Positions 9,168 to 9,327 of a DNA stretch of 64,000 nt are shown here, piece by piece. Source of the stretch: Escherichia coli (GTDB lineage: Bacteria > Pseudomonadota > Gammaproteobacteria > Enterobacterales > Enterobacteriaceae); NCBI RefSeq assembly GCF_003018255.1, contig NZ_CP027440.1. One strand, 5' to 3'. Position 1 is the first letter of the stretch; each line of letters opens with the position of its first letter. The notes beneath the pieces are model-generated. The model made no database searches, was not told where the DNA came from, and worked only from the letters and a program-made list of their open reading frames with translations. A program made the translations under genes and the position numbers.

Positions 9168-9295
9168 ATCATGATTGGACGGTGTAAGGACAACACCAAC
9201 AAAAACAGGAAGTTAGCAGTCTCAGCAAGACACCGACCAGACGGTGAGGAGACATAAAAGGATACGCAAAGGAGCCGCGGCTCCTGGTGATATGA

Positions 9296-9320
9296 AAGCC
9301 CACAGATGTGGGCTTTTTCG
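9296..9320 (+). terminator. Rho-independent terminator downstream of ssrA (also the 3' side of the convergent ypjA-like gene)
   Basis: AGCCCAC-agat-GTGGGCT followed by TTTTT. Confidence 0.55.
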
Positions 9321-9327
9321 TTGATGG

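Follow-up and report, generated by a model that had tools for sequence, protein, structure and literature searches.

The 160 bp between the tmRNA gene ssrA and the convergent autotransporter gene ypjA, positions 9168-9327 of the 64,000-nt stretch of Escherichia coli DNA that was analysed (the window), very probably represent an unoccupied ssrA hotspot, made up of an intact tmRNA gene, its own 3' trailer with an intrinsic terminator, and the convergent stop of ypjA. An empty ssrA site is an ordinary and already known state in E. coli. The spacer itself is a conserved module of about 150 nt with four hairpins, and the covariation and the G-U wobbles observed among its copies are consistent with an RNA of the + strand. 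Tentatively, and judged from sequence comparisons, it could be an undescribed conserved structured RNA module, i.e., a tmRNA 3' trailer with a function of its own (e.g., in tmRNA 3' maturation or protein sequestration), which is common to chromosomes and to one family of ssrA-integrating phages.

State of the ssrA site in the window and in K-12

The genes and sites that define the locus are as follows.

8805-9167, + strand: ssrA (tmRNA), full length, with the 3' CCA intact (ARAGORN, tag ANDENYALAA; Rfam RF00023)
9153-9167, + strand: attB core of CP4-57/IntA-type islands, CCGCCAGCTCCACCA (K-12 annotation, alignment and K-12 sequence)
9328-13902, - strand: ypjA/ehaD-like gene for an autotransporter adhesin of 1524 aa, convergent with ssrA (Pfam, RefSeq annotation of near-identical genomes)
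9319-20058, no strand: accessory block with ypjA, a pinH-like invertase remnant, split ypjCB, ileY and ygaQ (blastn against ATCC 25922)

The Rfam model RF00023 matched 8805-9167 with 292.8 bits over model positions 1-374, which is the whole model. The 3' end of ssrA in the window is CGCCAGCTCCACCA, and T357 is present, at 9161. The earlier note had placed 160 bp between the tmRNA CCA end and the stop of the convergent 1524-aa autotransporter, and this distance was confirmed to the base (9168-9327). The full open reading frame of the autotransporter extends over 9328..14031 on the - strand, the K-12-equivalent start MNRTSPYY is its residue 44, and the Pfam domains AIDA, Pertactin and Autotransporter beta-domain were found in it.

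The statement that CP4-57 with intA occupies ssrA in K-12 is borne out by the K-12 annotation. The island is annotated at NC_000913 2755941-2777971, from intA to ypjF (22 kb); it starts inside the last 15 nt of ssrA and ends at a 14-bp ssrA 3' duplicate, the pseudogene psaA. Beyond psaA follow 160 bp and then ypjA. The pairwise alignment with K-12, which had been proposed as a check, revealed that the attL side of K-12 matches the window ssrA (8805-9167), and that its attR flank is colinear with 9168-9327, with few substitutions and no bases gained or lost. It also located the duplicated core, which corresponds to 9153-9167 of the window; at the K-12 attR, i.e., in 'psaA', CCGCCAGCTCCACCA is duplicated minus T357. 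Thus, the locus, the flanks, the 15-bp core and the ypjA-side spacer are the same in both cases. They differ in that K-12 is occupied, has an island trailer and terminator, and carries an attR core without T357, whereas the window is empty and its core is intact.

The window has an intact ssrA 3' end, flanks colinear with K-12, no mobile gene at the site and no duplicated core. A second ssrA 3' end was not found in the 64-kb window, in which an 18-mer and a 25-mer of this end occurred once each with up to 3 mismatches allowed. No integrase or phage gene lies over the spacer; the two small open reading frames that overlap it, 9146-9364 (- strand) and 9308-9595 (+ strand), had no Pfam match and were rejected as candidates. 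Phage or integrase remnants in 9168-9327 and the same arrangement in K-12, the two findings that would speak against an empty site, were both looked for, and neither was found. The empty-site state proposed by the earlier note is therefore supported: K-12 carries 22 kb at this position and the window none.

Excision of CP4-57 transfers the T357 deletion into ssrA, which results in CGCCAGC-CCACCA and an inactive tmRNA (Onodera et al., PMC10107115), and comparable damage to ssrA, including some larger deletions, is listed for other ssrA elements (PMC10107115, Table 1). Because T357 is kept and no second ssrA 3' copy is present in the 64 kb, the site is read as an unoccupied attB without a CP4-57 excision scar. 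CP4-57 does excise in K-12 and P4-type integrases use the core (PMC10107115, PMC12315714), but a post-excision scar of CP4-57 or of a P4-integrase island is very improbable, since the window sequence CGCCAGCTCCACCA keeps the T at 9161, where CP4-57 excision leaves CGCCAGC-CCACCA (PMC10107115), and since the spacer has no added or lost bases compared with the K-12 attR flank.

The arrangement is not rare. ssrA and ypjA are contiguous in 1384 of the 5426 complete E. coli genomes, about a quarter, when contiguity is defined per genome as coverage of at least 80% of a 1001-bp junction query in one place; a few of these 1384 genomes contain small insertions, e.g., IS1. RefSeq annotates ssrA and ypjA as neighbours in contiguous genomes. 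As the empty state is common in E. coli and already annotated, finding it in the window matters little by itself. In other E. coli genomes the attR-side matches start at window position 9145, 9154 or 9162, and the attL-side matches stop at 9167-9169, 9208 or about 9320. These varied break positions fit several elements with different crossovers and core damage. They also fit the fact that ssrA is a known hotspot for a number of integrase families (Williams 2003, listed in Table 1 of PMC10107115). An example is strain ST70, in which a lambdoid prophage and a P4-like satellite lie in tandem between ssrA and ypjA; here the match ends at about 9320 because the ssrA-proximal prophage opens with a spacer copy of its own, behind which a restriction-modification module is located. 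The varied breakpoints and the ST70 tandem agree with a multi-integrase hotspot, and the window carries none of those elements.

The right flank of the site is variable. In blastn, the match of ATCC 25922 to the window stops at 9318 and is taken up again at 20059; the 10.7 kb in between are replaced by about 320 bp before glaH. The same junction is present in Nissle 1917 at 100% identity, and in E. whittamii a CsiD/GlaH open reading frame lies a short gap behind the trailer, all genes from ypjA to ygaQ being absent. As the block is absent from ATCC 25922, the right flank of the empty site is itself accessory DNA, and the ypjA-ygaQ block looks like an old accessory insertion without a recognisable att repeat. 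Several genes of this flank were also inspected. The ygaQ-like frame 17682-19934 (+ strand) is intact and encodes 750 aa with alpha-amylase domains, and its K-12 homologue is annotated as a pseudogene. The DUF5508 frame 15132-15887 and the DUF5507 frame 15936-16292 (- strand) are separate, as K-12 ypjB and ypjC are; YpjCB is one fused protein in other strains, and the annotation of the nearest genome gives it as frameshifted. The tRNA at 17049-17124 (- strand) was called tRNA-Met (CAT) by ARAGORN, and its K-12 equivalent is annotated as ileY, tRNA-Ile(CAU). Elsewhere in the window, in the Arg/Ser tRNA cluster, the ARAGORN tRNA-Arg(tcg) at 51677-51748 (+ strand) overlaps the - strand tRNA-Arg(acg) at 51692-51768 and is probably an antisense artefact.

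The earlier note had recommended the locus as a reference for prophage boundaries. This stands in so far as the site is unoccupied and intact; it is weakened by the fact that the state is common, that the spacer is homologous to phage DNA, and that the right flank is accessory.

Structure and conservation of the spacer

The following elements were found in the spacer and at its edge.

9165-9178, no strand: perfect 14-nt palindrome CCAATCATGATTGG, which includes the tmRNA CCA end
9181-9197, + strand: hairpin 1, GGTGT-AAGGACA-ACACC, with a covarying stem and a conserved A(A)GGAC(A) loop
9219-9223 with 9249-9253, + strand: outer stem GTCTC/GAGAC of hairpin 2 (9219-9253), from pair counts
9231-9246, + strand: inner stem of hairpin 2, CACCG-ACCAGA-CGGTG, nearly invariant
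9270-9285, + strand: hairpin 3, GGAGC-CGCG-GCUCC, which contains GGAGCCGCGGCTCC (9271-9284); fold of -12.8 kcal/mol, z = -2.8
9296-9318, no strand: predicted intrinsic terminator hairpin with a T5 tract, facing ssrA (folding)
9139-9180, + strand: 42-nt identity with phage LLS across its ssrA fragment and attP (alignment, LLS annotation)

The 64-kb window contains six perfect 14-nt palindromes, compared with 3.8 +/- 1.6 in shuffled sequences, and two of them are found within the spacer or at its edge, where about 0.01 would be expected in 160 bp; the accumulation in the spacer exceeds chance. One of the two is the palindrome that had been described before at 9271-9284, and it was found again as GGAGCCGCGGCTCC. 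The hairpin around it is almost invariant, apart from variants that are changed on both sides, namely GGAGTCGCGACTCC in ATCC 25922 and AGAGCCGCAGCTCT in the copy L171. The other, CCAATCATGATTGG, can fold into a 5-bp hairpin with a 4-nt loop, which would pair CCA with UGG in the precursor. Most of the copies from Escherichia and phages have kept it; those of the phiNP/Mixta type have not.

The terminator hairpin proposed for the spacer was likewise recovered by folding, at 9296-9318. On the + strand, GCCCAC-AGAT-GTGGGC plus T5 (9298-9318) folds with -15.4 kcal/mol (z = -4.9), and the structure, a 6-bp GC-rich stem with an A-U extension and U5, is that of a predicted intrinsic terminator. On the - strand the hairpin has -14.3 kcal/mol (z = -4.8) and lies 10 nt past the ypjA stop; its U tract, UUUCAU, is weak. 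The hairpin may serve both converging genes, ssrA and ypjA. A scanner for consensus promoters and terminators did not report the + strand terminator, although folding shows the hairpin clearly. We attribute this to the stem running into A/T runs, which uses up the T tract. Among the copies a compensatory change was seen in the stem, CCCAC/GTGGG versus CCCGC/GCGGG. The whole spacer folds on the + strand into four hairpins with z = -3.65.

RNAalifold recovered only two invariant stems from 105 unique copies, and for this reason the structure was set by hand and the pairs were counted. In these 105 copies one pair of hairpin 1 is GC in 54 and AU in 39, another is AU in 48, UA in 30 and CG in 19, and a pair of the outer stem of hairpin 2 is UA in 53 and UG in 47; the phiNP/Mixta copies have CG at this pair. 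Only the + strand is compatible with the G-U wobbles in the hairpins. In a curated alignment of 34 diverse copies (A4), 89% of the cells are paired and three pairs of the hairpin 1 helix are changed on both sides; altogether 35 cells are changed on both sides, in contrast to 12.4 +/- 2.7 in shuffles, none of 500 of which reached 35, and to 3-12 in controls in which the partner was slid. The inner stem of hairpin 2 and hairpin 3 vary much less. Their exact motif is present in 105 of the 116 copies that were gathered with an independent anchor, and the other 11 show, among other differences, altered loops, a single wobble, a single compensatory pair and a few disruptions. The micro-ORF MIGRCKDNTNKNRKLAVSARHRPDGEET in the spacer (ATG at 9171, stop at 9255-9257) was rejected as unconserved, as the alignments show the stop shifted in ST70 and premature in the copy of the phage-plasmid CT01. 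No family of Rfam 15 matched the trailer; apart from tmRNA itself, all matches stayed below threshold and were due to the terminator. A full-text literature search for the motif sequences of the module gave no match, and nothing on the module was found in the searched literature on ssrA, terminators, prophages and small RNAs.

The module is widespread in E. coli, being present in 4205 of the 5426 genomes (4883 places) and lacking in 1221. Among 100,044 species-representative genomes, however, its motif was found in only 18 enterobacterial representatives; the match in genome L127 is a G+C-rich false positive and was excluded. Both non-Escherichia loci with a full ssrA that were checked (Citrobacter MGH106 and Mixta) have phage tail/baseplate genes after the module, and three further full-ssrA loci have downstream sequence that is common to IMG/VR contigs. 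The sporadic occurrence in 18 representatives, together with phage-like downstream DNA, shows that the module is not general at enterobacterial ssrA loci. Directly after ssrA and without a prophage it is found in E. whittamii, in ATCC 25922 and Nissle 1917 (both of which we take to belong to phylogroup B2), and in non-B2 E. coli next to ypjA. This presence without a prophage across Escherichia indicates that the module is old, chromosomal and inherited with the locus.

Copies in phages and the origin of the module

A BLAST search with the spacer against phage records detected three phages, i.e., LLS (87.5% over 151 nt), Ayreon, and the Citrobacter phage phiNP (87%). In LLS, attP and a 39-nt stretch annotated as a tmRNA pseudogene directly precede the copy, and xis and int lie further upstream, in the order xis, int, orf, attP, module. 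The phiNP copy follows an ssrA fragment at the start of the record. Both genomes are virion-derived, and in both the homologous module is immediately 3' of the ssrA fragment at attP. The attP regions of the lambdoid phage LLS (PMC12315714) and of phiNP thus consist of an ssrA 3' fragment and an 87%-identical copy of 9168-9318, including the palindrome and the terminator; the difference is that no phage lies beside the module in the window. The 42-nt identity with LLS comprises 29 nt within ssrA and 13 nt past the CCA, and homology continues to the terminator. In the LLS publication the ssrA identity is given as 29 bp only (PMC12315714). Because the spacer is homologous to attP-adjacent phage DNA, the attL/attR homology of an LLS-type prophage extends past the recombination core, and the attL/attR repeat of such phages, i.e., the ssrA 3' end plus the trailer, can be about 180 bp long at 85-97% identity.

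The integrase of LLS is 86% identical to that of the ST70 prophage and 85% identical to that of phiNP, so that the three form one family; it contains the arm-binding domain DUF3596 and is unrelated to K-12 IntA. Viewed as the P' arm of an LLS/phiNP-type attP, the window spacer shares the homology to the DNA 3' of the phage ssrA fragment, but linkage to an integrase and shared arm repeats were not found, the window having no integrase. A motif search revealed the module on 111 IMG/VR viral contigs, most of which have an ssrA 3' fragment just upstream. It also occurs in phages with unrelated integrases, namely Ayreon and the circular phage-plasmid CT01, in which the arrangement is like that of ST70 and the ssrA end is decayed. 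The copies of Ayreon, L051 and L078 have no ssrA fragment upstream, which hints at a function that is untied to ssrA. In Ayreon (L006 3991-4107) a predicted promoter, TTGACA, 17 nt, TACAAC, is found in the place of hairpin 1, and in L051 (1740-1915) a different hairpin precedes the conserved core. In the ST70 prophage (L003 20469-23379) and in CT01 (L004 11475-14391) a restriction module common to both lies 80 bp beyond the trailer copy; it encodes a type II restriction endonuclease, a cytosine methyltransferase and a GIY-YIG protein. In CT01 the gene for the integrase adjoins a dusA fragment. This suggests that the trailer is passed between phages together with the cargo, as one cassette.

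Two origins can be considered. Either phages have captured the flank of an Escherichia ssrA, or a phage arm was retained in Escherichia. According to the second, which we regard as quite possible without favouring it, an LLS/phiNP-type prophage in an ancestor of Escherichia was later deleted and about 150 bp of its arm were retained as a footprint, the trailer and terminator having stayed because the ssrA transcription unit had come to use them as its functional 3' end. The module adjoins attP in phages of one integrase family (LLS, the ST70 prophage and phiNP), phage tail/baseplate genes follow it in Citrobacter MGH106 and Mixta and IMG/VR-like sequence elsewhere, its occurrence among species representatives is sporadic, and K-12 shows that island DNA can act as an ssrA trailer. 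On the other hand, E. whittamii, the B2 strains examined and non-B2 E. coli have the module without any prophage, which points to old, inherited DNA, no phage gene fragment is attached to it, and the capture of a host flank by phages accounts for the same data.

Possible roles of the trailer

Most likely, in our reading, the module is the 3' trailer of pre-tmRNA. A transcript that starts at the ssrA promoter would then extend across 9168-9318 and end at the hairpin, giving a precursor of roughly 520 nt with its end at the terminator 9298-9318. The module would supply the signals for termination and 3'-end maturation, and it would shield ypjA, or phage genes in lysogens, from the strong ssrA promoter. 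An element that integrates at the ssrA 3' end would have to provide a new 3' end and a terminator, and phages of the LLS integrase family would bring their own copy, so that on integration trailer and terminator would be swapped along with the 3' end of ssrA. In K-12 the trailer of ssrA belongs to CP4-57; its hairpin is a different one, and a terminator is reached within about 87 nt of the CCA. Hence, islands do supply an ssrA terminator. A plain trailer is at odds with the almost invariant core of about 85 nt, which a mere spacer in front of a terminator would not need. A related case is the speA prophage of Streptococcus pyogenes M1, which is likewise located immediately downstream of ssrA, between two ssrA terminators; read-through from ssrA enters speA and drives this toxin gene of the phage, and the efficiency of the terminator sets the transcription that enters the prophage (PMC9951164). 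It differs in that it belongs to another phylum, has an unrelated sequence and has the phage between two host terminators, whereas here the phage brings a copy of trailer and terminator.

The module could also be an autonomous regulatory small RNA, e.g., a CsrB/RsmY-like decoy of CsrA. The ssrA promoter would then drive its expression in the chromosome and in lysogens, or a promoter of its own would do so in phages like Ayreon. We consider this reading unlikely. The likeness to CsrB/RsmY RNAs lies in the short length, the several GGA motifs with one of them in a loop, and the terminator, while the model scores are far below the threshold. There are six GGA in 128 nt on the + strand versus one on the - strand, but 3.96 are expected and the enrichment is not significant (p = 0.12); AGGA occurs five times versus 1.45 in shuffles (p = 0.007). 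The loop of hairpin 1 has a GGA in 99 of 105 copies on a covarying stem, CAGGAAG and AAGGAUA are unpaired in the predicted fold, and the core is near-invariant. The annotated promoter of Ayreon stands where hairpin 1 would be, yet the Ayreon copy retains only three GGA. The RsmY model spans the whole LLS copy with 22.9 bits (E = 5e-4 in a small search), of which 20.9 bits come from the terminator alone, and the 22.9 bits for LLS and 10.3 for the window compare with a gathering score of 57. The rsmX model matched only the terminator, with a score of 19.2 (gathering score 56). Altogether, neither the window nor the LLS copy reached the gathering score of a CsrB/RsmY-type RNA of Rfam clan CL00106.

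Similarly improbable is that the palindromes and repeats are DNA sites for the recombination proteins of LLS-type phages (integrase arm, IHF, Xis) and that the hairpins are incidental. The module does sit at the expected P' arm of attP and travels with one integrase family that has the arm-binding DUF3596, but it persists in Ayreon and CT01, which have unrelated integrases. The inner stem of hairpin 2 and hairpin 3 are DNA palindromes that are kept in sequence beyond what pairing alone requires, whereas in protein-binding DNA one would not expect the compensatory changes and the G-U wobbles that hairpins 1 and 2 display. The P arm of LLS contains GTCTCAGTAGGAC, a 12/13 match to the P' copy; in phiNP, despite an 85% identical integrase, the P arm lacks this motif at up to 3 mismatches. 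The 13-nt repeat of the LLS P and P' arms was therefore treated as a chance match rather than an integrase arm site, being absent from the phiNP P arm. A retroregulation of int like that by lambda sib/tI was also rejected: the LLS gene order fits it, yet in module-bearing hosts int still faces a homologous copy after integration, and the int gene of Ayreon is oriented away from the module.

Taken together, the exact core at 9153-9167, the intact T357, the frequency of the empty state, the long attL/attR homology and a structured spacer without a described family are what the analysis adds to the knowledge of this site. The delimitation of prophages at ssrA should allow for an LLS-type repeat of about 180 bp instead of a 15-bp core, and should take into account that the ypjA-ygaQ right flank is variable. 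The trailer itself is a strongly conserved, covarying element of about 150 nt immediately behind a gene that is among the most highly transcribed. In K-12, CP4-57 lies between the ssrA promoter and the module, so that work on pre-tmRNA in that strain could not see the module next to ssrA. If the module is functional, it would either add to our understanding of tmRNA biogenesis or show what a phage needs for a harmless integration into ssrA.
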